Assembly (NCBI GenBank): GCA_965371685.1
Contig: CBDUZM010000001.1
Span: forward strand, 1 to 37,566
Source: an uncultured Spirochaetaceae bacterium
GTDB lineage: Bacteria > Spirochaetota > Spirochaetia > SZUA-6 > CAZLRN01
Direction: 5' to 3'
DNA: 37,566 nt
The notes beneath the pieces were generated by a model that saw only the letters and a program-made list of their open reading frames with translations, was not told the origin of the DNA and did not search any database. Positions 10,247-37,566 of this stretch are shown here, one piece after another. Both the position numbers and the translations under genes were made by a program. How positions within the stretch are numbered: position 1 is the first letter of the stretch; each line of letters begins with the position of its first letter.

Positions 10247-10987
10247 ATGAAACAGAGAATTACGGAAGAGATCAAAGTCGACATCGGATTGGTCGCCCAG
10301 GCGCTGAACAACACGAACGCCACGGGGAAGTACCATCCGATCAAAGATTACGCCGCTATAGCGGCAATCCTTTCAGGCGGCGCCATGGCGGCAACAAAGA
10401 CATCAAAGATCGAGCTTCTGCAGGCCTCAGATTATGCCGGCACAGGCTCCAAGGTTATACCCGCGGGAGGGCAGCTTGCAACGGCGGAGATTACAGCAAA
10501 CACCCTTGTGACTGAAATGACGATCACCCTCGCGACATTCCTGGCCACCGGCACGATTACTATAAACGGACTGGTTTTCACGGCTCATGCAACGGTTACC
10601 ACCGTGGCAGACAGGGAGTTCAGCATTTCCGGCGCCGACACGGCGGACGCGGTGGAGCTATGTGTCTGTATCAACGACCCGACCTACGGGGTTCCCGGGG
10701 TAACGGCGACCAGCGCACTCGGAGTGATAACGCTGGTGGCAACGGAACCCGGAGAAACGCTGATAACCGTGACCAGCGCCCCGGACGACGGGACCTGCGT
10801 GAAAGCCACCACTAAGGCGCAAGCCTATGTGGAGATAGATACCCGGAAGATCGACAAGAAAAACGGCTTCGATTACGTAGCGATCAAGATAACTACCACG
10901 GCCAACAGCAACGTGGCGGCGGCGCTTTTAAGGGGTAACGCCAGGTACTCGCCGGACCAGAAAGTCGGGGCATCGGCTACCATCTAA
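10247..10987 (+). CDS. Putative head decoration / auxiliary capsid protein carrying a ~102-aa insert domain
   Basis: Directly follows the capsid gene (TAA then ATG) and is followed by a strong terminator. Residues encoded by 10511-10816 are paralogous to 12075-12380. Confidence 0.5.
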   Translation: MKQRITEEIKVDIGLVAQALNNTNATGKYHPIKDYAAIAAILSGGAMAATKTSKIELLQASDYAGTGSKVIPAGGQLATAEITANTLVTEMTITLATFLATGTITINGLVFTAHATVTTVADREFSISGADTADAVELCVCINDPTYGVPGVTATSALGVITLVATEPGETLITVTSAPDDGTCVKATTKAQAYVEIDTRKIDKKNGFDYVAIKITTTANSNVAAALLRGNARYSPDQKVGASATI

Positions 10988-11684: not shown

Positions 11685-12572
11685 ATGGCCCTGGATGCAA
11701 ACGCCCTGGTGGATTGGACAAAGACAAAGGCATATCTCGCGCTCGACGACAGCAAGCAGACCTATATGGAACCGCTGATTAATTCGGTCTGCACCCAGGC
11801 GAACAACAAAACGGTAAGGCTGCTCAAGGCCCGGGCTTATACTTTGATACTGGACGGCGCCGGCTCGGACACTCTCATACTACCTCAATATCCGGTGAAT
11901 TTTATAACCAAGCTCTATTCGGATACCGAGCGAGTTTTCGGCGCAGATAAGGAGATCCTTAGCTCCGATTACGCGCTTTATAAAGAGAGCGGTGTCATCA
12001 AGCTATATTCGAAGAAATTCTCATCTAAGATCCAGACTATAAAGGCGGAATTCAACGCCGGCTTTGGACAGGTAACGGAGATGACGATCACCCTCTTGAC
12101 CTTTCTTGCAGACGGCATAATCACCATAAACGATCTGGACTTCAAGGCTCATGCAACGGTCACCACGCCGGCTAATAGGGAATTCAGCATCGCCGGCGAC
12201 GACACGGCGGATGCGGCGGAGCTGGCGACATGTATCAACGACGCGACCTACGGCGTTCCCGGAGTCACGGCTGCCAGCGCTCTCGGAGTGGTTAAGCTGG
12301 TTTCCACGGATCCGGATGAAACGGTGATCACGGTATCCACCGACCCTGATGATGCAACCTGCGTAAAGGCAACGATAAAGGAAATGGTGCCCGAGGACCT
12401 CCAATTTGCGGTGCTCGAAATACTCTCCTGGAATATGGCTCGCTTTGCTTCCGGAGGACAGGCAATAGGCGTCAGGAGCCGAACGGCGGACGGTGTGGAC
12501 ACGGGAATGGAAATAACCATTCCCCTGAATGCCCAGAGGACCCTCGAATTCTATCACAGGCCGGAAGGTTAA
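11685..12572 (+). CDS. Head-tail connector (gp6-like) with an inserted ~102-aa domain
   Basis: The N-terminus (VDWTKTKAYLALDDSKQTYMEPLINSVCTQAN) and C-terminus (VPEDLQFAVLEILSWNMARF) are gp6-like. The insert is shared with the 10247..10987 product. Confidence 0.65.
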   Translation: MALDANALVDWTKTKAYLALDDSKQTYMEPLINSVCTQANNKTVRLLKARAYTLILDGAGSDTLILPQYPVNFITKLYSDTERVFGADKEILSSDYALYKESGVIKLYSKKFSSKIQTIKAEFNAGFGQVTEMTITLLTFLADGIITINDLDFKAHATVTTPANREFSIAGDDTADAAELATCINDATYGVPGVTAASALGVVKLVSTDPDETVITVSTDPDDATCVKATIKEMVPEDLQFAVLEILSWNMARFASGGQAIGVRSRTADGVDTGMEITIPLNAQRTLEFYHRPEG

Positions 12573-15984: not shown

Positions 15985-18129
15985 ATGGCCAAAGACATTA
16001 AGGTACGCTTCAAAGGAGAAGATAAAGGCGCAATCGCTACGACCAAAAAGGTCAAGGGCGAGCTCGGAGATCTCGATAAGACAGTAAAAAAATCAAGCGC
16101 CTCTATGCTGGCTGCCGGCGCCGCAATTGGGATCGCTGTCGTTGCGCTGCGCACCATAAGCAGGGTTATGAATGACCTGCAGGAGGCTTATTACAAACAG
16201 GAAGCGGCGGTCACAAAGCTAGAAGCAGCTCTCCATGCAACGAATAATGCTCTCGGAATGTCTTCCACCGAATTACAGAATTTCGCTTCACAGATGGCCA
16301 GCGTAACGGCGATCGCCGACGAAGATATCATCACTGTTGAAGCCCTCATGGTCACTTTTACCAAAATCGGGAGGGACGTATTTCCTACTGCGATCAAGGC
16401 TGCTGCTGATATGTCGGTGATGTTCGGACAGGAACTGCAGCAATCCGCGATCCAGCTCGGGACAGCATTAAATGATCCCATTGCCGGCATCGGACGATTG
16501 AGACGCATAGGCATAGCTTTTACCGAAGAACAAAAAAACATGATCGCTTCATTCATGGAGGTTAACGATCTGGCCGGCGCCCAGGGTGTTATCCTCAATG
16601 AGCTTTCAGCTGAATTTGGAGGAGTCGCTGAAGCGATGGGAAAGACGGCAGAGATGATTGACAAGAGATTGAAAGACTCAATAACCGATTTAAAAGAATC
16701 TTTGGGGGGATTGCTTATTGAGTTATTGGGAATCAGTAAAGGAAAAGAAAAATTAACCGGATTTATTGATTCTATTAGAAACAATTTTATTGACATGCCG
16801 GTTCTTACCAGGGAAACTCAGGCTGGTTTAGAGCAATTGGCGGCGGCAACAAATAACTGGGCCGACCTTTCTGTTGAAGATTACAATACTGTAAATGAGC
16901 TTATGGAAAAGTGTCAGAAAATCATGTCGTGGCAGGTCGAGGCAAACAGCCAGGCGGCATTATCCTGGCGAAACATGAGAAATCAATTGTCATTAATGTT
17001 GGGCGATCTGCAGGATGAGTATGACGCTCAACAGAAACGGCTGGCCTTGCAAATCGATATAGGCAAAGGATTTGAATTTTATGAAAAAGCTCTCGAAGAT
17101 ACGCTTACCGCTGAAGAAAAGAAGCGAAGGATGTATCAAACCGTAATCGATCAGCTGGCGGCATATCGAGCAAATCTAAAGAAAGCCGGCGAATGGGAAA
17201 CGGAACATGGCAAGGGGGTGCAGGCATTAATCAATGTATATGTTGCTTTACTTGAGGCTATCGGGGATGCGGCTGATGCCTGGTCAGACCTGGGCGGAGA
17301 AATAGACAAATGGCCTGCGGGAGGTATTCTGATGGGTGGAATGGGACAACCTTTTTCTCCTGGATTGCCGCAGGCAGGCACGCCTCCGATAGCCGGCGCT
17401 GCGGGAGGCGGGGCGCAGATGTTACTTCGCCCAACGCCGGAGCCTCCTACTAAATCTATGGATGCCATAGCCATTTTTTCAAGAGCATTAGAAGGAACCA
17501 TCGGCGGTCTCATGAATTTTCTCAATTTGTTTCAATCTTTTCAGGCAGTAATTCAACCACTTCAGCTTATTTTCCAGGGCATGATGCAGGTGCTTCAGCC
17601 CCTGGTCGATAGAATCCTGCAGCCGCTTATTGGAATATTTATTATCATCGGTAGAGTTCTTGGAACGATCCTTGCTCCTGTCTTCGAAGCGCTGGCCATG
17701 ATTGTCGACAAACTCGCCCAGGCTTTTGTCTGGTTCTATAACAAAGTAATCAGGCCGGTAGGAAATTTCATCATTTCCATATTCAATATTGTAGCAAACG
17801 CTTTAATATTTTTTGCTAATTTATTCCTCCGGAAAAGCAAGGAGATTGCTTATCGTCCTATTACGGCCGGCCATCTTCCGGAGATCTCTCTCGGAGATGT
17901 ATACGCTGCCGGCGAGACAGGAATGGGTGGAACTACTGCCGACCTGGGCAGCACAACCACGATCCAGCGGCAGCCGGATATTTATATATATGTCAATTTC
18001 AACGATGCCGTAATCGGCCCTATGGGCTGGGAGCAGGCAGGAGCGGATATTGCCGACGCGCTCGAGCGTCATGCTGGAATCGGCGGAATAATCCATATTG
18101 AAGAAGCGATAGCTCCGGTAGGCGGGTAG
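15985..18129 (+). CDS. Tape measure protein
   Basis: 714 aa, helical and Ala/Gly/Ile-rich, with hydrophobic segments near the C-terminus. Positioned after G/T. Confidence 0.9.
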   Translation: MAKDIKVRFKGEDKGAIATTKKVKGELGDLDKTVKKSSASMLAAGAAIGIAVVALRTISRVMNDLQEAYYKQEAAVTKLEAALHATNNALGMSSTELQNFASQMASVTAIADEDIITVEALMVTFTKIGRDVFPTAIKAAADMSVMFGQELQQSAIQLGTALNDPIAGIGRLRRIGIAFTEEQKNMIASFMEVNDLAGAQGVILNELSAEFGGVAEAMGKTAEMIDKRLKDSITDLKESLGGLLIELLGISKGKEKLTGFIDSIRNNFIDMPVLTRETQAGLEQLAAATNNWADLSVEDYNTVNELMEKCQKIMSWQVEANSQAALSWRNMRNQLSLMLGDLQDEYDAQQKRLALQIDIGKGFEFYEKALEDTLTAEEKKRRMYQTVIDQLAAYRANLKKAGEWETEHGKGVQALINVYVALLEAIGDAADAWSDLGGEIDKWPAGGILMGGMGQPFSPGLPQAGTPPIAGAAGGGAQMLLRPTPEPPTKSMDAIAIFSRALEGTIGGLMNFLNLFQSFQAVIQPLQLIFQGMMQVLQPLVDRILQPLIGIFIIIGRVLGTILAPVFEALAMIVDKLAQAFVWFYNKVIRPVGNFIISIFNIVANALIFFANLFLRKSKEIAYRPITAGHLPEISLGDVYAAGETGMGGTTADLGSTTTIQRQPDIYIYVNFNDAVIGPMGWEQAGADIADALERHAGIGGIIHIEEAIAPVGG

Positions 18130-18131
18130 AA

Positions 18132-21100
18132 ATGGCCTATTTCGTACCATGCACTCAAGACTTTAAGGACGCTGTTGCCGACCCTCTTTCGGCGCGATAT
18201 CTGAAGGTCCTGATAGATATCGACGACGATGACGTCCTCGAGGACGTGACTGCCGATCTGGACAATAATTACGTCCAGGGCGGCGGTCGGCTGCAGGGCG
18301 CTATAGGTATATCCACAAAACAGTATACGGTAAGACTTCGTAATACCTCCCAGACTTACGCAGAAGGAGACTTCGCCGGCGCAATATGCGCGATTGAGGC
18401 CAAAGTCGGTACAGCAGAATACATCCGGATCTTCACCGGTATCGTATCTGAGGAGGGCTGCAGCCGGACAAAGCGAACAAAGAGCGGCGATCACGTAACC
18501 ATCCAGATGAATGATGCATCGAAGAGCAAGGGTATGCGGGCGAAATGTAAACCGGTCGTCTATACCACACACAAGATATGCGATACAGCAACGCCGGCCA
18601 ACTCTATTTTTCACAAGCTTGCCGCACTCATGGGCCTGGCGGCCGGCGATCTGGAAACCGCCACAATCAACCAGACAAAGGATTACCTCCCGCTGACTCA
18701 AAAGCGTACGGCCTGGCAGGAGCTCCAGGATCTAAACGCTCAATATATCGGTCATATGTGCTTCCGCTACGACGGCAAGCTTCGCTTTATCTCCCGCCAT
18801 CAAACCGGATGGACTGACCCGGTAAGTGAGTGGACTTTCGATACTGATAATATCCATTCTCCCTGGAAAGGCAGGAGCTCTCCGATTAAGTGCAACCGGG
18901 TCAAAACCGTATTCGAAAACTATGAGAATCTCGGCCAGCGGGTGATTTATAAGAATACCGATGAATGGGATTCTGTGCTCGAGCGAAACGCCATTGCTGT
19001 CCCAGCCGGAGATTACTGGCCTGGCCCGAATGCCGGCGACAAGGCGCAGCTCAACTATAAGGATCCTGTCTCCGGAGAGAAATTTCCCATTGGTATATCT
19101 ATTCAAACGCCGAACATTGGCGCCGTGGCAAGCGGATCCGATATCGAATGTGAAAATGGCCTGCTTACCCTTACCAGTTTCAACGGATCCACAGGCGCCA
19201 CACATCAGAATCCGGGAAACTCAGAAATAATACTCTATAATAACACGGGCTCCACTATCTATGTTCGTAAATTCGAGATCAGGGGAACGGCGCTCAGGAT
19301 CCAGAAGAAAGTGATCGTCGAGGACGTGGACGCCGGCGTCACAGACGAATGGAATTATGTGGACAAGACTATCCCCGGGAAGTACGCAGTCAGCGATACC
19401 CAGGCGCACATATCAACCCAACGCTGGGTTGAATTCGGCAAGGTAAAGCGAAAGCTATTCGATCATGTTACCGATTGGATCCCACAGATCCAGGAGGGCG
19501 CGGTCATTACGTTTCATCCGGATGCCGCAATAAATATGTCGGCGGTAGTTGAATCGTTTCAGCATCAATGCTCAGGGTCGATGCGGAAATGGAAAACAAA
19601 AATTGATATCCGGGGAAAAGAAGATTTTTCTCCTTCCGGATCTGCCCAGGTGATCGAGGCAAACCAGGGAGAGGCGGCTACAGAGACGGGTGAACAGTTT
19701 GTCACCCATGATGAGGCGATGGCTGGGTTCAACAACAGTCCGAGCGGTGGCACTACAACGCCGACGCAGGTAACCATAGCCGTCTGCAAGGCGGTTGCCA
19801 CAAAATCAATACTGCTGATCTGGAACCGCCAGCTCACCCTGACCAATTTCGACCATTATGAGATCCAGGTCTCTGATGACGATGCAACATGGTATTCTCT
19901 CAAATTCGATGGAACCGACTGGAAAGATCAGGTAGGGGCTGTTACCGCAGTTTATCCTGAATATTTAATTCATTCCGGGATTCCGCATACAGGCACTGCG
20001 GATAATCCAAGCGGTCGGACGCTTTATTATAGAGTCCGCCGGGTGACGAAAGAGCCTGCAAACGGAACCTGGTCTTCTTCCGCAAGCACGACAACGAAAA
20101 CGGTCGCGGCCGGGGACCTGGCTGCAAATTCAATATATGCAAATAATATTCTTGCTGCAGCAATTCAAACAATGCTTCTTCGAGCTGCTTATATCTGGAT
20201 CGGATATGCTGGTAGTGGCGCCTATACCAGCCCTGATGAAGGAGATAGGAGAATTTATGGCGATGACGATGAAATCAAATTTCAAGTTTATACAAACGGA
20301 GCCTGGTCAGCTGAACGTCAGATTGCTTTTGGCGGTGTCGATAGTAACGGTAATTTTCGTTCCCTTTTAGGGTGCCAGGGAATCCTCAGAGATATAACGG
20401 ATTCACCGCTTCTGGATCCTATCCCTAGTCGTGGTCATAAATTATTTAAATGGGATAATAATGCAGAAGATCAGCATGGCGTCGATCCATGGACAGTTGT
20501 ACTGGGCGCTTTTGTTTATTCAACTACCAGGTGGGAAGGTACGCAGTCCCTTTCTCCTTCTGATCTTTTACTGAATGCCTGGTACGCCGGGGGCTGGGTA
20601 GCCGGAGCAAGTTGTACGACTTGTTTTATGTTTCGTGATGATGGATCTCAAATAGGACACAATTTAATATCATTTAATGCATCTAATCTGGATGATCGTA
20701 TTATTACCAAATACAGTTACGGCCGGTCAATAAGACTTGAAATCAAAAAAGGTGTTGCGGCTGCCCAGTATGTCGACTCGGCTGTTCTTTCTACCGGTGT
20801 TTGGCATTTTATCGGAATGACTTATAACAGCGTTACCAATACGGGATATCTCCGGGTTGATAACAATCAATATTCATTGACCCCAACAGGCACATGGGGC
20901 TCTGGAACAAAAAGTATTTATTTAGAACTTCCGGGCGGGACGTATCAGCGGCGAATGGATGATCTTTTGATCTCCTCCGATACGGCGATGGATCCAGATC
21001 TTTTCTTCCAGCATGTCAATCGGGATGTAGCCTGGACTGCTGATTATTTTGCGCCAGATGTTCTATTAAAACCTAAATCAGGCGGCCGGGTGGTAATTGA

Positions 21101-21479
21101 TGATAGTGACACCGAGCCTTCTCTTGGCACAGGACATTGGCGGGGAAATACTTCAAGCGCAACGCCTCTATTAGATCAAAATCTTTCAGTTGCAGAAACA
21201 TGGTATACAGTAACATTTTCTAATGCACCAGAAGGCGCGAAATGTGCGTGGGCTTTTAGTATCGTTAGTATTGCTGCGCCGACTAATATACTTATGAGAG
21301 TAAGGAAATATGGAGATACCGTCCCCGTAGGTGCTGAGTTAACACAGATGTATGCAAGCAGTGTCTTACTTATTGGGGGACTATGTAGATTTCCGTTGGA
21401 TGGAAGCAAAAGAGCACAAGTTACATCAAACAAAAACACAAGAATAAGAGTATACGAGGGCGTATTCTATGATATATAG
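18132..21479 (+). CDS. Large tail tip / host-recognition protein (FN3-like and LamG/concanavalin-like regions)
   Basis: 1115 aa directly after the tape measure. WNRQLTLTNFDHYEIQVSDDDATWYSL is FN3-like. VWHFIGMTYNSVTNTGYLRVDNNQYSL is LamG-like. Confidence 0.7.
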   Translation: MAYFVPCTQDFKDAVADPLSARYLKVLIDIDDDDVLEDVTADLDNNYVQGGGRLQGAIGISTKQYTVRLRNTSQTYAEGDFAGAICAIEAKVGTAEYIRIFTGIVSEEGCSRTKRTKSGDHVTIQMNDASKSKGMRAKCKPVVYTTHKICDTATPANSIFHKLAALMGLAAGDLETATINQTKDYLPLTQKRTAWQELQDLNAQYIGHMCFRYDGKLRFISRHQTGWTDPVSEWTFDTDNIHSPWKGRSSPIKCNRVKTVFENYENLGQRVIYKNTDEWDSVLERNAIAVPAGDYWPGPNAGDKAQLNYKDPVSGEKFPIGISIQTPNIGAVASGSDIECENGLLTLTSFNGSTGATHQNPGNSEIILYNNTGSTIYVRKFEIRGTALRIQKKVIVEDVDAGVTDEWNYVDKTIPGKYAVSDTQAHISTQRWVEFGKVKRKLFDHVTDWIPQIQEGAVITFHPDAAINMSAVVESFQHQCSGSMRKWKTKIDIRGKEDFSPSGSAQVIEANQGEAATETGEQFVTHDEAMAGFNNSPSGGTTTPTQVTIAVCKAVATKSILLIWNRQLTLTNFDHYEIQVSDDDATWYSLKFDGTDWKDQVGAVTAVYPEYLIHSGIPHTGTADNPSGRTLYYRVRRVTKEPANGTWSSSASTTTKTVAAGDLAANSIYANNILAAAIQTMLLRAAYIWIGYAGSGAYTSPDEGDRRIYGDDDEIKFQVYTNGAWSAERQIAFGGVDSNGNFRSLLGCQGILRDITDSPLLDPIPSRGHKLFKWDNNAEDQHGVDPWTVVLGAFVYSTTRWEGTQSLSPSDLLLNAWYAGGWVAGASCTTCFMFRDDGSQIGHNLISFNASNLDDRIITKYSYGRSIRLEIKKGVAAAQYVDSAVLSTGVWHFIGMTYNSVTNTGYLRVDNNQYSLTPTGTWGSGTKSIYLELPGGTYQRRMDDLLISSDTAMDPDLFFQHVNRDVAWTADYFAPDVLLKPKSGGRVVIDDSDTEPSLGTGHWRGNTSSATPLLDQNLSVAETWYTVTFSNAPEGAKCAWAFSIVSIAAPTNILMRVRKYGDTVPVGAELTQMYASSVLLIGGLCRFPLDGSKRAQVTSNKNTRIRVYEGVFYDI

Positions 21480-23599: not shown

Positions 23600-23699
23600 G
23601 GGTCAATACGAAACACACTTCCCAAAAACCGATGAAAAAGCGGGTCAATACGAAACATATCCCCCGAATTTGCCCGAAAAAGCGGGTCAATACGAAACA
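23600..23699. repeat. Three direct copies of GGGTCAATACGAAACA spaced exactly 42 bp apart
   Basis: Copies at 23600-23615, 23642-23657 and 23684-23699. Copies 2 and 3 share a 24-nt version, GAAAAAGCGGGTCAATACGAAACA. A rearranged copy (GGGTCA 23830-23835 + TGTTTCGT 23839-23846) lies 130 bp downstream. Confidence 0.9.
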
Positions 23700-23776
23700 C
23701 TTTTCTTATCCCTTTCCTGTTAGGCGATAAATCCTTCTCCCCTTCCCTTCACAATCAGCAGCCATAGACAGCAAAT

Positions 23777-24457: not shown

Positions 24458-25252
24458 ATGAACAGCGAAAAGGCACAAGAAACATTGGATTGGCTCATAG
24501 ACAGGCTGATTTACCAGGAGGAGCTGCCCGGGACCCTGACCAGGCTGATCCTGCAGCCGCCTGCCGGCCCCATGCAGAAATGGAGCTTGATGAATCAGCT
24601 CATGGTGCGGACACATGGCTATCAGGAAGCCAGGGGATTCAGGCAGTGGCAGCAGGTCAAGCGGTATGTGAAGAAAGGTATGAAGGCTGTCTACATCCTG
24701 GGCCCGATCATGATCCCGGTCAAGGAAGAGGACGAGACAGGGGAAAAGAAGACAAAGCTCGTCGGGTTCAAGGCCATACCTGTTTTCGGCTATGAGCAGA
24801 CAGAAGGGGAAGAGCTTCAGGAATATAACCAGAGACGCCACATCTCAGAATCCCTTCCGCATCTCCCCCTGGCTAACATTGCGTCGGATCTCGGCATCGA
24901 AGTCAAGGCCGATTTCACACACAACGGCGAGGCCGGCTATTTCCAGCCCTCGGACAGGATCATCGGAATCTGCACCGACTCCCAGCAGACCTTCCTCCAT
25001 GAGATCAGCCACGCGATTGATTACAAGTTAGGTAATAACAGCAGCCGTGAGGAAGGAGAGGTTGTGGCCGAGCTCTCAGCCTGCTTCCTGGCTCACATCC
25101 TGAGGCTTTCGGCAAACATGAAATATACGCAGAATTATATCCGCTCCTGGAGCGGCCGGCAGCACGCTGGGGTCGCCATCGGCCGGGAAATCGACCGGGT
25201 AAAGGCGATCTACGATTTCTGCAGCCGACACATCGAAGAGCAGGCAGCCTGA
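24458..25252 (+). CDS. ardC: ArdC-like antirestriction protein (ssDNA-binding N-domain + HExxH metalloprotease domain)
   Basis: The N-domain ...GFRQWQQVKRYVKKGMKAVYILGP... is DUF1738-like. The C-domain has FLHEISHAIDY (HExxH). Confidence 0.75.
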   Translation: MNSEKAQETLDWLIDRLIYQEELPGTLTRLILQPPAGPMQKWSLMNQLMVRTHGYQEARGFRQWQQVKRYVKKGMKAVYILGPIMIPVKEEDETGEKKTKLVGFKAIPVFGYEQTEGEELQEYNQRRHISESLPHLPLANIASDLGIEVKADFTHNGEAGYFQPSDRIIGICTDSQQTFLHEISHAIDYKLGNNSSREEGEVVAELSACFLAHILRLSANMKYTQNYIRSWSGRQHAGVAIGREIDRVKAIYDFCSRHIEEQAA

Positions 25253-25971: not shown

Positions 25972-27081
25972 ATGCCGCGGCCTTATCTTCTGAAAAAACG
26001 TGGGAAATACTGGCACTATCGGCTCGCCGGAGAGGTCACTTTCCATACCACCGGATGCAAGAGCAAGGAGGCGGCCCACGTCTTTGCCGTCGAGGCCATT
26101 AAGAACAAGAACCCGGGACCGGAAATCCTTCTGGCCGAATTTTCCCTGGGATTCTTCGCCCAGGACGGACCCTGGGTGGCCGCCCGAAAGGCCAGGGACC
26201 GACCCTTTTCCCCGCCAATGACCCGGATTAGAACCGCTCATATGAAAAACTACATCCTCCCGACCTTCGGCCGGCAATCCCTCTCCCGGATCAAGGCCCA
26301 TGAGGTCGATGACTGGATCCTCGGCCTACCCCTGGCGAACGGCACCAAGAACGCCATACTCGACTCCTTCCGCCTAATTCTCAAAGAGGCGCAGCGCCGG
26401 AAGATCATCGATCGGAACGTCATCGAGGACATCGAGCGAATGGCAAATAAATACGTTCTCACCGATGTGTTTACCCTGGAGGAATTGGGAAAGCTCTTTC
26501 CACAGGATCGCTCCGAGCTGATCGGGGTCTGGGGACATGTGAAATGGGCGAGCATGCACTATCTGATGCTTACCGCAGGACTCCGGGTCGGGGAGGCGGC
26601 GGCGCTTCTCTGGCGCCACGTGGTCTGGGATCTCGGGGGCCTCCTGGTTCTCCAGGCTGTCAAAGGAGACGAAACCATTGGGCCGCCAAAGAGCGGGGAG
26701 GAGAGGAGCGTGATCCTGCCCGACCGCTCGATTGAGATGCTCAGGGCCTGGCAGGAAGAGACTCCGTATCCGGATCCGGAGCATTATATCTTCTTCAGTC
26801 TATCCGGAGAGGAGTATTTCAGAAGCTCCAGCGTCAGCCGGAAGATGCCCGAAGCCCTCCGCAGGTCCGGGATCGATCCGGCCGGCCGCCGGCTGCGGAC
26901 TCATTCCCTCCGCCATACCTACAATACCCGGCTGGAGAAGGTGCTGCCGGCGGAGATCCTCCGCTACATGATGGGCCATAAGACCGACGTAATGACACGG
27001 CGCTACCTCCATGTCACACCGGAGGAAAGGCTGCAGGAATATCTGCCGGTAAAAAAACAGATCGAGCAGGCCTGGGATTAA
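25972..27081 (+). CDS. int: Tyrosine recombinase / phage integrase
   Basis: C-terminal catalytic pattern ...GLRVGEAAAL... HSLRHTYNT ... MGHKTDVMTRRYLHV (R, H-x-x-R, Y). Confidence 0.9.
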   Translation: MPRPYLLKKRGKYWHYRLAGEVTFHTTGCKSKEAAHVFAVEAIKNKNPGPEILLAEFSLGFFAQDGPWVAARKARDRPFSPPMTRIRTAHMKNYILPTFGRQSLSRIKAHEVDDWILGLPLANGTKNAILDSFRLILKEAQRRKIIDRNVIEDIERMANKYVLTDVFTLEELGKLFPQDRSELIGVWGHVKWASMHYLMLTAGLRVGEAAALLWRHVVWDLGGLLVLQAVKGDETIGPPKSGEERSVILPDRSIEMLRAWQEETPYPDPEHYIFFSLSGEEYFRSSSVSRKMPEALRRSGIDPAGRRLRTHSLRHTYNTRLEKVLPAEILRYMMGHKTDVMTRRYLHVTPEERLQEYLPVKKQIEQAWD

Positions 27082-27456: not shown

Positions 27457-27678
27457 TCAATCCTTTGTACCAGGCTGGCCGCTTGCTTTTCCCGGCAGGC
27501 CAGCCTGGTACTTTTCTGCAATTGTTACCCTATTATTTTTCTCTAAATATCCATTTCTAAAAAGAATATCCTCAATCATCCATGCAATCTGTTCTTTCAT
27601 AGAGCGATGCTGGCTTTTGCTATATTGCTTAAAAAGATTAAGAATCTTTTCTTCGATATCTGTTCCAATGCGGGCCAT
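27457..27678 (-). CDS. Ribbon-helix-helix (Arc/CopG-like) repressor candidate
   Basis: MARIGTDIEEKILNLFKQYSKSQHRSMKEQIAWMIEDIL fits strand-helix-helix. Divergent from the early operon and leaderless. Confidence 0.65.
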   Translation of the reverse strand: MARIGTDIEEKILNLFKQYSKSQHRSMKEQIAWMIEDILFRNGYLEKNNRVTIAEKYQAGLPGKASGQPGTKD

Positions 27679-27734: not shown

Positions 27735-27763
27735 TTGACAAAACGTCATAGCTATGCTAAATT
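27735..27763 (+). promoter_or_regulatory. Early promoter TTGACA-17-(TGc)TAAATT with palindrome CATAGCTATG in the spacer
   Basis: -35 at 27735-27740 and -10 at 27758-27763. The 10-bp perfect palindrome is at 27747-27756. ATG 27772 lies 8 nt after the -10 (leaderless). Confidence 0.55.
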
Positions 27764-27771
27764 AAAGTCAT

Positions 27772-27960
27772 ATGAAAGCTACAATAGCTCCTAAACGACG
27801 TAAATATTCTATTGGCGTGCTATTGACCGAAGAAGAATGGGACCGCATCAATCGCTTTATCGATCGAACTGGACTCAAGAAGCAATTTTTCTTTCATGAG
27901 GCTATCTTGAAAGAGCTCGAATGCCAGGATCCCCATGAAGAGATCAAGGCGAATGAGTAA
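27772..27960 (+). CDS. Cro-like small RHH DNA-binding protein
   Basis: KYSIGVLLTEEEWDRINRFIDRTGLKKQFFFHEAILKEL fits strand-helix-helix. It is the first gene of the rightward early operon. Confidence 0.55.
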   Translation: MKATIAPKRRKYSIGVLLTEEEWDRINRFIDRTGLKKQFFFHEAILKELECQDPHEEIKANE

Positions 27961-28330
27961 GCATACACCTGGTCCGTGGAAATGGACATTATCTGGTGAT
28001 CCGAGAGATATGTATCAACTTGAAGGCAATATCAAATATGCGGATATGAATCCCATTTTGGTGGCATATGATTGTGGCTGCCAGGCAGATAAAGAAACAG
28101 ACCGATGCCCTATTGGGCCCGATCCCGCAGACATGAAGATAATTGCGGCTGTTCCGGATCTGCTCGCAGCATGTAAGGCAGCTTTGGAAATGTGTTCATT
28201 CCCGATTGGGACAGCGTGGGTCAAAGAGCAGCTTCAGAACGCTATTTCCAAGGCTCAAGATTTACCAAAATTCAAAGACATAATTGGTTTATATGCTGAT
28301 GACAAGAATGAGGAAAGCCAGGAGAGTTAG
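27953..28330 (+). CDS. Hypothetical protein (HTPGPW ... AAVPDLLAACKAAL type)
   Basis: The ATG 27953 overlaps the upstream stop (ATGAGTAA). Alternative ATG at 27935. Confidence 0.55.
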   Translation: MSKHTPGPWKWTLSGDPRDMYQLEGNIKYADMNPILVAYDCGCQADKETDRCPIGPDPADMKIIAAVPDLLAACKAALEMCSFPIGTAWVKEQLQNAISKAQDLPKFKDIIGLYADDKNEESQES

Positions 28331-28332
28331 GA

Positions 28333-28542
28333 GTGAAGCTCTATAAGAAACCGGAAGCGGCGGAATATCTATGTATCGGTATTTCCTCGCTCAACGTGCT
28401 AATGGCCCGGGAGCTTATTTCTTATTACAAGAATCCGGGAAGCCGGGGACGCGTGGTTTTCTCCGAAGAACATCTCGACCAATATCTGAAAAGCATCAAG
28501 GTAGAGACGATGGGAGAAAAATCTATCGGTTCCAGGCAATAA
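28333..28542 (+). CDS. Excisionase / AlpA-MerR-like HTH DNA-binding protein
   Basis: LYKKPEAAEYLCIGISSLNVLMARELISYYK fits the HTH_17 pattern. GTG start 6 nt after GGAGAG. Confidence 0.6.
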   Translation: MKLYKKPEAAEYLCIGISSLNVLMARELISYYKNPGSRGRVVFSEEHLDQYLKSIKVETMGEKSIGSRQ

Positions 28543-28553
28543 GACAATACGAA

Positions 28554-28928
28554 ATGGGAGGATCCAAAAGAAAAATGAAGCAGATCTGCTGCGAATGTAA
28601 GAAGATATATGGAGAGAAGCCCGGCGAAGGCTACACTCACGGTTACTGCCCGGAATGCGAGGATACGGTCCGCGAGAACCTGGGCCTGGCGCCGCGTAAA
28701 ACGGAAAAGAACAGGCTTGAATCGACTCTGCTCGAGGTGGCTGTGGATCGTAGAGACGAGGCGATCAATATACTCGACCAGCTGGCCAGCACATTACCGC
28801 GATCAACTATAGCTGGCCGTTCGCTTGTAAGATCAAAGGCCGAGGCACGGAAAGCCCAGTGTTTTATCAAGATGGACTGGATGGATCTGCGGATCCATAG
28901 CCAGGGAAATGCCGGGAAACCGGCATGA
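28554..28928 (+). CDS. Zn-ribbon protein (CxxC...CxxC)
   Basis: ICCECKKIYGEKPGEGYTHGYCPECED. The start is either ATG 28554 or ATG 28575. Confidence 0.5.
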   Translation: MGGSKRKMKQICCECKKIYGEKPGEGYTHGYCPECEDTVRENLGLAPRKTEKNRLESTLLEVAVDRRDEAINILDQLASTLPRSTIAGRSLVRSKAEARKAQCFIKMDWMDLRIHSQGNAGKPA

Positions 28929-28939
28929 AGGAGAGAGAT

Positions 28940-29137
28940 ATGTCAGAAAAAAAACCTGATTCGGATAGCCTGACTACTATCAGACGATTACCGCATATTC
29001 ATATACATATCCATTTCGACAACGGAGATAACGACCCGATGAGTCGGGAGCAGATCGGGAAAGATATTCCCGATGCGCTCGAGCGTTATCCGGGAATAGG
29101 CGGATCTATCAAACATAAAGAAGAAATTATTTCATAA
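28940..29137 (+). CDS. Small protein paralogous to the C-terminal ~55 aa of the tape measure protein
   Basis: AAGGAG lies 6 nt before ATG 28940. TTIRRLPHIHIHIHFDNGDNDPMSREQIGKDIPDALERYPGIGGSIKHKEEI aligns with the TMP tail TTIQRQPDIYIYVNFNDAVIGPMGWEQAGADIADALERHAGIGGIIHIEEAI. Confidence 0.55.
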   Translation: MSEKKPDSDSLTTIRRLPHIHIHIHFDNGDNDPMSREQIGKDIPDALERYPGIGGSIKHKEEIIS

Positions 29138-29193
29138 TGTATTTAAGCATAGAATCAGCAAAGCCATATACGGCCCTTCCTGAGTCTTTATTC

Positions 29194-29230
29194 CCCTCCC
29201 AGAAAAAAGAACTTTTGGGAGGGCCTTTTT
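29194..29230 (+). terminator. Terminator-like hairpin CCCTCCCA/TGGGAGGG (14-nt loop) + CCTTTTT
   Basis: 8-bp perfect stem at 29194-29201/29216-29223, then a T5 run. Confidence 0.45.
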
Positions 29231-29251
29231 AATGAGAAGTGGGAGCTTTCG

Positions 29252-30054: not shown

Positions 30055-30126
30055 GGGGACGTGGTGTAATTGGTAACATGGTATGCCTGGCCAGGCCCGA
30101 TGCAGGTTCGAATCCTGCCGTCCCCC
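30055..30126 (+). ncRNA. tRNA-like element 1: canonical acceptor, D and T arms but no foldable anticodon arm (possible pseudo-tRNA)
   Basis: GGGGACG/CGTCCCC acceptor, GTGT-AATTGGTA-ACAT D arm, GCAGG-TTCGAAT-CCTGC T arm. The 12-nt palindrome GCCTGGCCAGGC (30085-30096) sits where the anticodon arm should be. I tested 6- to 9-nt loop registers by hand and none gave a 5-bp stem (7-nt: every window; 6/8/9-nt: most windows). Confidence 0.5.
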
Positions 30127-30276
30127 ATAGACGAATCACGAGCCTAAGAGAGGTTGGCCCAACCGATGCAGGCTCGGTCAAGGTTGGGACTGTTCGATAT
30201 CGCAGTCAAGACGAGGCGAACGCCGGTCAACGGAAGATATGAAGGCGTGACTTGCCGGGGGAGAGAACCGGCACAT

Positions 30277-30357
30277 GGGGATGTGGTGAAATTGACAATA
30301 TGTCAAGAGAGGAATGATCCAGCCGCAAGGTCGCAGGTTCAAATCCTGCCGTCCCCC
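30277..30357 (+). ncRNA. tRNA-like element 2: paralogue of element 1 with a 49-nt non-canonical core
   Basis: GGGGATG/CGTCCCC acceptor and GCAGG-TTCAAAT-CCTGC T arm. The core folds as TTGAC-AATAT-GTCAA, GGA-ATGA-TCC and GCC-GCAA-GGT rather than as D and anticodon arms. Confidence 0.45.
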
Positions 30358-30454
30358 AAACCGGAAGTGATGGGTCATCGGTTGATCGATGTTATCGTCC
30401 GGTAGGGCGACACCTGCCTAGTGGTGCTGACTGCCGGGGAGAGTACCGGCGCAT

Positions 30455-30526
30455 GGCTCTGTGGCTTAATGGTTGAGCAGCGGTCTGTTAAACCGCCAGA
30501 CGCAGGTTCAATTCCTGCCGGAGCCT
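30455..30526 (+). tRNA. tRNA-Asn (anticodon GTT)
   Basis: Acceptor GGCTCTG/CGGAGCC, D arm GCTT-AATGGTT-GAGC, anticodon arm GCGGT-CTGTTAA-ACCGC, variable loop CAGAC, T arm GCAGG-TTCAATT-CCTGC. CCA is not encoded. Confidence 0.9.
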
Positions 30527-34632: not shown

Positions 34633-34689
34633 ATATTGATATTTCCAAGATCGAGAAAAAAAAGAGCAAGTAAAGGAGGAAAAGAAGAA

Positions 34690-35400
34690 ATGAAAAAAGC
34701 ATGGATCACTACGGAACAATGGCAGGCCTGCGCCTTTCATGTGGATTTGATTAAGCTGGAGAGGAAACCTTGCTACCTGGGCATGGAGCTCTCGGCTTTG
34801 CAGGATATTACGGCAGCGGCTCTCTGCTTTCCCCCGCAATCCTCAAGGGAACGCTATCAATTTCTCTTCAGATTTTTCATACCTTCAGAAATCATCATGG
34901 AAAGAGAGGGGAAGGAAAAGATCCCTTTTTCATCCTGGATCAACAAAGGCCTGGTGACCGCGACTCCGGGGAATGTCACAGACTATGATTTTATAGAGCA
35001 GCAGATCCTCGAGGATGCGGAGAGATATGAAATCCGGGGAATCGCATATGATTCCTGGAAGGCTCCTGAAATTGTCAATCATCTTATGAACAAAGGATTC
35101 ACAATGATCCAGATCAATCAGACCTTTTCAGGCATGGCCAGGCCGACAGAAATTTTTAAAAAGAAGGTCCTGACCCGGGTAATCGCCCATGACGGAAATC
35201 CGATTATGAACTGGATGATTTCATGCACGGAGCTGAAAAGAAATAAGCAAGGTGAGGAAATACCGAAGAATCTGCTCTATGAAAAAAGCTATAAAAAAGG
35301 CACACCGATCCGCGACTGGCCGGAAAACAAGAGCAGGATCAAGGGCGTGGTGGCTTCGATCATGGCCCTTGGAATAGCGGTAGGACCGACGGAGAAATAA
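34690..35400 (+). CDS. Stand-alone paralogue of the terL C-terminal RNase H-like nuclease domain (no ATPase domain)
   Basis: AAGGAGGA SD precedes ATG 34690. The product aligns over its whole length with terL residues from about CYVGMDLSASQDIT to VVASIIAIG. Examples: CYLGMELSALQDITAAALCFPPQS..RERYQFLFRFFIP and GNPIMNWMISCTE. Confidence 0.75.
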   Translation: MKKAWITTEQWQACAFHVDLIKLERKPCYLGMELSALQDITAAALCFPPQSSRERYQFLFRFFIPSEIIMEREGKEKIPFSSWINKGLVTATPGNVTDYDFIEQQILEDAERYEIRGIAYDSWKAPEIVNHLMNKGFTMIQINQTFSGMARPTEIFKKKVLTRVIAHDGNPIMNWMISCTELKRNKQGEEIPKNLLYEKSYKKGTPIRDWPENKSRIKGVVASIMALGIAVGPTEK

Positions 35401-37274: not shown

Positions 37275-37566
37275 TGCTTGCTGTATTATGGAAAGGAAAA
37301 GCAATCTCAGTCAATCGTTGGCACGTGATACGAAATGTAAGGATCAGCGCTTCCCAGGAATATGAGAAATTCATCGACAGCCTGGCCTGGACGATCCGTG
37401 CGGAAACAAAAGGACTAAAATGCAGCAGCCTAAATCTCACTATCGACTCGAAGCTTAACCCCTGGTTCGATCATCAGAATCTGCTAAAACCGATCTGTGA
37501 TGCAGTGCAGCGATCGGGGCTTTTGGCGGATGACATGAAAATAAAGAGTATATGGCTGCAGGACGC
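37274..37566 (+). CDS. rusA: RusA-like Holliday junction resolvase, 5' part (runs off the window and continues at 1..149)
   Basis: TAATG overlap with the previous gene. Contains ...NPWFDHQNLLKPICDAVQRSGLLADD... Confidence 0.75.
   Translation, partial: MLAVLWKGKAISVNRWHVIRNVRISASQEYEKFIDSLAWTIRAETKGLKCSSLNLTIDSKLNPWFDHQNLLKPICDAVQRSGLLADDMKIKSIWLQD
37482..37566. repeat. Terminal overlap with bases 1-85 (82/85 identical)
   Basis: Direct comparison: mismatches at window positions 55, 75 and 83, with the first 54 nt identical. Confidence 0.95.

Follow-up and report, generated by a model that had tools for sequence, protein, structure and literature searches.

A stand-alone, charged paralogue of the tape measure C-terminus in a phage genome from an uncultured Spirochaetaceae assembly

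Introduction

Cryo-electron microscopy of phages JBD30 and T1 places the C-terminal end of the tape measure protein (TMP) in the core of the baseplate or tail tip, where tail assembly starts; T5 and 80alpha are also cited in that work on TMP anchoring, and the JBD30 authors have proposed that opening of the tip frees this end first (PMC11445458; PMC11945409). Here we describe a gene for a protein of 65 amino acids (aa), hereafter the mini-gene and the mini-protein, in a stretch of 37,566 nucleotides (nt) from an uncultured Spirochaetaceae bacterium (the window: contig CBDUZM010000001.1 of NCBI GenBank assembly GCA_965371685.1). The mini-protein has its origin in the very C-terminal part of a TMP encoded in the same window; in T5 pb2, 80alpha, JBD30 gp46 and T1 gp38 this end is fixed in the core of the baseplate or tip (PMC11445458; PMC11945409). 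Like the C-terminal domains of siphophage TMPs, it has a predicted helix flanked by short extended segments; unlike them, it is a separate 65-aa product, resurfaced and highly charged, with no sequence match to a solved structure.

Several small phage proteins that act on TMPs offer comparisons. Tab of Pseudomonas phage JBD26, an 83-aa prophage protein, blocks tail assembly via the C-terminal part of the TMP, and an antidote, anti-Tab, neutralises it by direct binding (PMC10884400). The mini-protein is likewise small and tied to the TMP C-terminus, and the titration logic of anti-Tab would be applicable to it. Tab itself has no similarity to known proteins, and its gene lies between terS and terL, on the opposite strand and with its own promoter, and is expressed in the lysogen (PMC10884400); the mini-gene, in contrast, encodes a TMP paralogue and ends a switch-proximal operon, on the strand of its neighbors and not beside terL (4128..5915). 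T4 Imm and HK97 gp15 are also small phage proteins, some of them early, that act on the TMP (bioRxiv 10.64898/2026.03.06.709160). Imm is a membrane protein with no reported TMP homology, whereas the mini-protein is TMP-homologous, acidic, and predicted to be soluble. A further parallel is given by phage FimU-like proteins, in which a phage copy of a component of a multi-protein machine is used in trans (PMC12952977); there a host type IV pilus component is mimicked, whereas here the copy is of the phage's own virion protein, and of its terminal domain only. The literature searched held no described stand-alone paralogue of a TMP end, dominant-negative TMP fragment, or self-derived virion decoy. 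The novelty is that a known theme, domain duplication giving a trans-acting mimic, is met here with the TMP end. On balance we think it slightly more likely than not that the mini-protein acts, in one way or another, by mimicking the TMP end.

The mini-gene and the tape measure C-terminus

The features needed for this comparison are as follows.

28940..29137, + strand: mini-gene, 65 aa plus stop, stand-alone paralogue of the TMP C-terminal module
28928..28933, + strand: Shine-Dalgarno (SD) sequence AAGGAG, 6 nt 5' of the ATG at 28940
15985..18129, + strand: TMP gene, 714 aa, matching Pfam TMP_2 and PHROG families, with 189 homologues
17923..18114, + strand: source module, TMP residues 647-710 at the extreme C-terminus, a predicted helix flanked by strand-like segments

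The 714-aa open reading frame (ORF) is a TMP by its matches to Pfam TMP_2 (E = 1.3e-08) and to 12 PHROG tape-measure families (best E = 8e-25). BLASTP against this ORF aligned the mini-protein with TMP residues 647-710 at 32/65 identities (49%) with one gap, and the similarity is significant (E = 8e-17). A first-pass annotation, made by a model from the letters of the window, had seen a likeness to the TMP C-terminus at about half of the positions, which agrees with this alignment; the two DNA 42-mers that it quoted are both present as written and differ at 6/42 positions. Codon-aligned DNA of the mini-gene and the module is identical at 123/192 positions (64%), and an independent repeat search returned a 133-nt direct repeat (17974-18106 vs 28991-29123, 71%). 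The ratio of nonsynonymous to synonymous substitution rates (dN/dS, or omega) between the mini-gene and its parent was left unused, with synonymous sites near saturation (dS 1.44). By these alignments, the mini-protein and the TMP C-terminus are genuine paralogues.

The mini-gene has an alternative in-frame ATG at 28925 that overlaps the stop codon of the upstream gene (ATGA). We favor the ATG at 28940 as the start because it is the one in the database gene call and has a conserved AAGGAG 6 bases upstream.

Neither the mini-protein nor the module had a match in Pfam, PHROGs, NCBIfam, PADLOC, or the PDB sequences, and the mini-protein had no match to TMP_2 in Pfam. A word-indexed search of 5.8e9 proteins with the mini-protein returned only the mini-protein itself. 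Nothing was found in viral, genome, and metagenome contigs searched with the mini-protein, the TMP end, or an alignment of two mini-proteins, and the TMP-end alignment was also without match in genome contigs.

An orthologue in a second phage and evidence of constraint

One of the short matches to a profile of the module (see below) is a syntenic orthologue in a second phage fragment. This orthologue, P0234 (69 aa, 61% identical, E = 2e-25), is encoded on a 1.2-kb ENA contig (L002; ERZ23498859) with the gene order of the window: a helix-turn-helix (HTH) gene, a zinc-ribbon gene, the mini-gene, g67, and g79. A block that spans the stop codon of the zinc-ribbon gene, the SD sequence, the spacer, and the ATG, GCATGAAGGAGAGAG(A/T)TATGTCAGA, is conserved in L002, and the reading frame of the mini-gene is intact in both, with no internal indels, in flanking coding DNA that is ~70-85% identical. 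The mini-gene is unchanged in L001, a second assembly of the window's phage (99.68% identical).

Between the window and L002, the mini-gene has an omega of 0.41 with dS 0.69 (Nei-Gojobori method), and its neighboring genes range from 0.14 to 0.30. When the 54 substitutions were placed randomly, 32.9 +/- 2.6 amino-acid changes were expected under neutrality against 26 observed (P = 0.008), and the open frame was kept in only 25% of the neutral trials. The syntenic orthologue, the conserved SD sequence, ATG, and terminator (see below), the omega value, and the deficit of amino-acid changes lead us to conclude that the mini-gene is a maintained gene under purifying selection.

The same data bear on whether the gene is simply a near-neutral relic of illegitimate recombination that by chance came to lie after a ribosome-binding site and is still to decay. 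Constraint is weak enough, and the chance of an open frame at such divergence large enough, to leave room for this explanation, and the genome has other internal duplications, the TMP 3' end has been duplicated independently in another phage (L004), and the lineage is rare. A relic would, however, hardly be expected to retain an intact frame without internal indels, together with its SD sequence and ATG, in two phages that have diverged this far in the flanks, nor to show amino-acid change below the neutral level and selective retention of fold core positions. We therefore regard a relic as rather improbable.

The lineage is known only from metagenomic contigs. The g79 family has three members; those besides the window's own lie on contigs of <= 735 bp that end short of the mini-gene position. 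The one IMG/VR relative, UViG_3300037264_002859, has, at the positions covered (~8268-37240), neither the mini-gene nor the paralogue of the terminase nuclease domain described below; a switch region would be expected in its first 8.2 kb.

Most other short matches to the module were rejected as stand-alone genes and taken as TMP fragments at contig ends. P0122, whose first base is contig base 2, and P0147, which begins at contig base 39, were excluded in this way, and others had a first residue other than Met or TMP-like sequence upstream.

Origin by duplication

In a distance tree of 157 modules, the two mini-proteins formed one clade, and the nearest TMP module was the window's own, which itself grouped with P0004 and P0156 (winTMP/P0004/P0156). 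In a three-way DNA alignment, the L002 copy matches the TMP at many sites where the window copy has changed, and vice versa, and the ATG of the mini-gene is aligned to an internal Met codon of the TMP (M647). The clade and the three-way alignment together indicate that both mini-genes stem from a single duplication of ~190 nt of the TMP 3' end in a common ancestor. By this phylogenetic evidence, the mini-gene arose when the 3' end of this phage's TMP gene was duplicated and the copy exapted.

The same module has also been duplicated as a separate ORF with its own ATG in L004 (NCBI GCA_016935735.1, JAFGQK010000379.1). The product there, P0127 (63 aa), differs from the mini-protein in being independent, recent, and not resurfaced, ranking 5/157 against the TMP profile. 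The TMP 3' end of L004 forms a direct repeat (1231-1401/1946-2116, 171 nt, 90% identity); the P0127 gene lies 544 bp downstream of the TMP gene, with 17 nt differences but only 3 aa differences, and a 620-aa gene on the opposite strand stands between the stand-alone copy and the gene for a homologue of g1115 (below).

The module is inherited together with a large tail-tip protein

Downstream of the TMP gene lies the candidate partner of its C-terminus.

18132..21479, + strand: g1115, a large tail-tip protein (1115 aa) whose gene starts 3 nt after the TMP stop; putative docking partner

The tail genes are ordered as a 555-aa tube protein (Phage_tube_2), two chaperone-sized ORFs, the TMP, and the 1115-aa protein. 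The Phage_tube_2 match, together with no match to a sheath family among the tail ORFs scanned, fits the siphophage-type, non-contractile tail that the first-pass annotation had assumed.

The module, which comprises the C-terminal ~60 residues, is common to a subset of TMP homologues. A profile of it matched only 160 proteins at E <= 1e-3 among 1.84e9 representative proteins, and in the matches listed it stands at the extreme C-terminus of proteins of 200-1300 aa, fragments and stand-alone copies excepted. The concern, raised in the first-pass annotation, that the motif might be a generic domain of many unrelated proteins is answered by this rarity. A homologue of g1115 follows the module-bearing TMP in 8/8 loci examined (the window, L003, L004, L005, L008, L011, L012, and L013); identity across the N-terminal 250-750 aa is 31-73%. 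The L008 TMP is, in its body, without detectable similarity to the window's TMP, and the module and the N-terminus of g1115 are both conserved there. We found no match for g1115 in Pfam, PHROG, NCBIfam, or the PDB sequences. Within the g1115 family the N-terminal ~700 aa are conserved and the C-terminus is variable.

This strict co-inheritance points to docking of the module in the tail tip. Taken with the cryo-electron microscopy of other phages, it leads us to infer that the module is the TMP docking end for g1115-type tail tips. The first-pass annotation had tied the TMP C-terminus to channel formation as well; the data lend that no support for this module, and what they do reveal is its co-inheritance with g1115.

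The mini-protein has kept part of the features of this module. It scored 32.3 bits (E = 2e-11) and P0234 37 bits against a profile built from TMPs only. The mini-gene has neither the TMP-end position nor a g1115-type gene next to it, and is followed by a terminator and then by unrelated small genes. The near-invariant residues of the module are glycines at positions 9, 32, 35, 40, 54, and 55 and Pro18; the mini-protein retains P18, G40, G54, and G55 and carries D9, D32, and S35, and P0234 has additionally lost P18 and G55.

Coupling between module and g1115 is also what one would expect if the mini-protein were an assembly factor or timer for the phage's own tail, a free module that primes or holds the g1115 tip until the TMP arrives, as the first-pass annotation had suggested first. 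Such a factor would not be expected in a separate transcription unit, closed by a terminator, 10.8 kb from the tail genes, and no second copy of the module was present in the stretches examined of L008, L011, L012, and L013, which have the same module and tip. A stand-alone copy of the module does not appear to be needed for assembly, because only 2 independent stand-alone lineages occur among the ~150 matches listed. We consider this role very unlikely.

Resurfacing and predicted structure

The two mini-proteins differ from TMP modules in a consistent direction. Against the TMP-only profile they were the two lowest of 157 sequences (32 and 37 bits), below the TMP minimum of 41 and well below the median of 89. 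The grand average of hydropathy (GRAVY) was -0.90 for the window's mini-protein and -0.80 for P0234 (TMP modules: median 0.02, minimum -0.45), and the fraction of charged residues was 0.32 and 0.30, respectively (TMP modules: median 0.14, maximum 0.24). The two share 15 substitutions relative to the TMP, nearly all of them from Gly or a hydrophobic residue to a charged or polar one; among them are G to S/E/D, L to S, V to D, I to S/K, and Y to H. Charge has taken the place of the Gly-rich loop and of the last strand's hydrophobic face, both of which are lost. What has been kept is the I-x-I-x-I-x-F strand together with the GIG turn and, most clearly, the helix. The helix reads EQ(I/A)G.DI..ALE in the mini-proteins and in the window's own TMP, and the family consensus at that place is EVGEFVVEAIQEY. 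The hydrophobic core and a lineage-specific surface thus appear to be retained, a pattern expected of a buried tail domain that has been made free and soluble.

The mini-protein has no hydrophobic segment, transmembrane stretch, or signal peptide, as judged from its sequence (GRAVY as above; 32% charged). An AlphaFold2 (AF2) monomer prediction from a 76-sequence alignment (predicted local distance difference test, pLDDT, 70.9) gave only the central helix, residues 36-49. The flanking strands are extended in this model, so that pairing with a partner would probably be needed for them to fold.

A switch-proximal operon

The mini-gene is the last gene of a rightward unit next to the integrase region, whose features are the following.

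25972..27081, + strand: tyrosine integrase (Pfam Phage_integrase, E = 3.2e-19)
27457..27678, - strand: 73-aa leftward ORF facing the operon across a divergent promoter-like region; candidate ribbon-helix-helix repressor, read by eye
27735..27763, + strand: sigma-70-like promoter, TTGACA, 17-nt spacer, TAAATT, with TG, by consensus match only; candidate operon start
27772..27960, + strand: 62-aa ORF, first gene of the operon, by eye a ribbon-helix-helix protein and putatively Cro-like
27935..28330, + strand: 131-aa gene of the Phage_P22_Y8K6 / phrog_1273 family
28333..28542, + strand: 69-aa HTH_17 (excisionase / AlpA-like) gene, E = 2.5e-4, below the Pfam cut-off; 76% identical in L002
28575..28928, + strand: 117-aa zinc-ribbon-like protein (CxxC...CxxC), directly 5' of the mini-gene with a conserved 11-nt gap
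29172..29232, + strand: strong intrinsic terminator, GGCCCUUCC...GGGAGGGCC and then UUUUU, at the operon end right after the mini-gene

The phage is taken to be temperate because it has an integrase. Promoter-like sites occur in both directions between 27686 and 27763, and the leftward side also has an ORF for a 78-aa membrane protein. The operon consists of the promoter-like site, five genes, and the conserved strong terminator; no promoter-like site lies between the zinc-ribbon gene and the mini-gene, whose 11-nt gap holds only the SD sequence. For comparison, a moron is a single added gene flanked by a promoter and a terminator of its own; here the strong terminator stands just downstream of the mini-gene. 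No family match was found for the zinc-ribbon protein or for the two small ORFs (62 aa and 73 aa) that flank the promoter region, and PADLOC-DB 2.0 (2023) gave no match for the mini-protein, eight neighboring proteins, or the terminase nuclease paralogue.

The terminator has a folding energy of -25.7 kcal/mol (z = -3.3). The block of ~65 nt that holds it (29170-29237) differs from L002 at one position, in contrast to the ~70-85% identity of the flanking coding DNA, and that change (A to G opposite U) keeps the pairing. The block may carry more than a terminator, such as a promoter or ribosome-binding site for g67, or a small RNA.

The first-pass annotation had placed the mini-gene in an early operon. 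The location is supported, the operon being switch-proximal and near the integrase; early expression is a prediction, and we treat the rightward unit as a putative immediate-early operon.

The regulatory neighborhood raises a different explanation, in which the mini-protein has taken on a new role unrelated to tails, pairing with or regulating the zinc-ribbon protein or the excisionase/HTH switch, and its likeness to the TMP is only historical. The zinc-ribbon gene and the mini-gene have a conserved 11-nt spacing and similar rates of change (62% and 60% identity, omega 0.30 and 0.41), which is suggestive of co-evolution, and both the strong remodeling of the surface and the position among regulatory genes would follow. 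It is in the helix, however, that the mini-proteins and the phage's own TMP are most alike, and in the TMP family at large this helix varies; that would be unexpected if a TMP-like surface were irrelevant. We hold such a switch of function to be rather improbable.

Proposed function

We return to mimicry of the TMP end. In the mechanism that we propose, the module would, within the TMP, be the end that docks into a tail-tip complex built on a g1115-type protein. A copy of this end now lies last in the switch-proximal rightward operon, and has been resurfaced to give a charged, predicted soluble protein. Made before the late proteins, the mini-protein would work in trans as a mimic of the TMP end, and would occupy any factor that recognises the TMP C-terminus while itself staying out of the tails. 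The version that we rank first, though only tentatively, is a protective decoy: the mini-protein would titrate a factor directed against the TMP C-terminus, such as a Tab-like blocker of tail assembly or an immune sensor, and the phage's own tails would be left free to assemble. A decoy would explain why the mini-protein resembles the phage's own TMP and also why it has lost the features for incorporation into tails, by which self-poisoning would be avoided; it is consistent with production before the late proteins.

Close behind we rank a dominant-negative action, which is possible but, taken alone, less likely than not. Here the free module would occupy the TMP docking site on g1115-type tips, or a needed host factor, and so keep related phages from assembling tails or getting their DNA in, as superinfection exclusion or inter-phage competition; this was the second idea of the first-pass annotation. 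The evidence for mimicry from paralogy and resurfacing applies to it equally, as does the co-inheritance of the module with g1115, and a protein with one strand face lost and its core kept has the look of a capping or poison subunit. There are precedents acting on TMPs in Tab, at tail assembly, and in T4 Imm and HK97 gp15, at entry. Expressed from a lytic-side operon, such a protein would nevertheless hit the phage's own tails as much as those of a competitor, and no antidote is evident. T4 Imm, the one TMP-binding exclusion protein considered here, is moreover a membrane protein, whereas the mini-protein has no hydrophobic segment or signal peptide, and the residues likely to form the surface in contact with the hub (Tyr, the Gly loop, and the last strand) are those that have changed. 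Exclusion of the prophage type is made less likely by the probable expression of the mini-gene on the lytic side of the switch.

Several points weigh against mimicry in general and the protective decoy in particular. The early, lytic-side placing depends on consensus promoters and on ribbon-helix-helix ORFs read by eye that have no family match. No Tab-like protein or sensor of the TMP end is known for the lineage, PADLOC returned nothing for the operon, and the TMP sensor Avs18 binds a central helical segment and not the C-terminus (PMC13581612). Constraint on the mini-gene is only moderate, with the highest omega in the block and substitutions distributed 19/14/21 across codon positions; in P0234 the second Gly of the GIGG motif, otherwise invariant, is gone; and an early-region copy of the TMP end occurs, among the matches listed, in only one lineage. 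Part of the polar drift would also follow from relaxed selection on a segment rich in Gly and hydrophobic residues. The data show paralogy, conservation, purifying selection, resurfacing, the anatomy of the operon, and co-inheritance of the module with g1115; early expression, docking, mimicry, and the identity of the partner are inferred.

A second copied late protein suggests a broader version of the decoy.

34636-35400: stand-alone paralogue of the TerL nuclease domain (Pfam TerL_nuclease, E = 1.8e-19; TerL itself at 4128-5915)

The paralogue, which the first-pass annotation had counted as one of two fragment copies of late proteins, matches TerL residues 363-586 of the same phage at 55% identity, and its divergence is similar to that between the mini-protein and the TMP. 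TerL and the TMP are known targets of bacterial sensors, TerL of Avs1-3 and the TMP of Avs18 (PMC13581612). The copies of the C-terminal domains of the phage's own late proteins (TMP end, 28940-29137; TerL nuclease, 34636-35400) might then form a set of self-derived decoys which, made before the late genes are expressed, would blunt host or prophage factors that recognize TerL and the TMP. We think this improbable. If true, it would be a new route of counter-defense, in which a phage duplicates and resurfaces its own immune-visible domains.

Other features of the genome

A third internal duplication lies among genes of the structural region (10247-10987 vs 11685-12572), with a segment of 103 aa that is 75% identical; the corresponding DNA repeats (10508-10817 / 12072-12381) are 77-78% identical. 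The window begins and ends with an 85-nt direct repeat (1-85 and 37482-37566; 3 mismatches, 96%). The contig probably represents a genome that is circularly closed or has terminal redundancy, but its two ends are not identical.

Three tRNA-like genes lie in 30055-30526: ARAGORN gave 30055-30126, in which the anticodon loop is unusual, and also 30455-30526 (Asn), and Rfam gave 30277-30357, just above the gathering score. At least 8 tandem 36-nt repeats (GAGAAAACCA...AGCGAGCCA) occur at 179-491 within the ORF 146..841 and could be iterons or encode a repeat protein. The sequence GGGTCAATACGAAACA occurs three times with 42-nt spacing at 23600-23710, in DNA that follows the lysis-like genes and is either intergenic or made up of short ORFs, and may represent binding sites. 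A gene for a radical-SAM protein lies upstream of the terminase genes (2196-3005), and radical-SAM genes are also found near the tail modules of L004 and L013. A weak match to an ArdC-N / zincin-like protein of anti-restriction type lies beside the integrase region (24458-25252).

Implications

The coupling between the module and g1115 defines a putative, previously unannotated docking domain of the TMP and, in a tail-tip family without Pfam, PHROG, or PDB match, the protein to which it probably docks. TMPs are emerging as a focus of conflict among phages and between phages and their hosts, as Tab, T4 Imm, HK97 gp15, and Avs18 illustrate. A resurfaced, soluble copy of the TMP end would be a natural competitive probe of the interface between TMP and tail tip, and the mini-protein would allow a direct test of how the TMP end is engaged and of whether self-derived copies serve as decoys or as interference factors.

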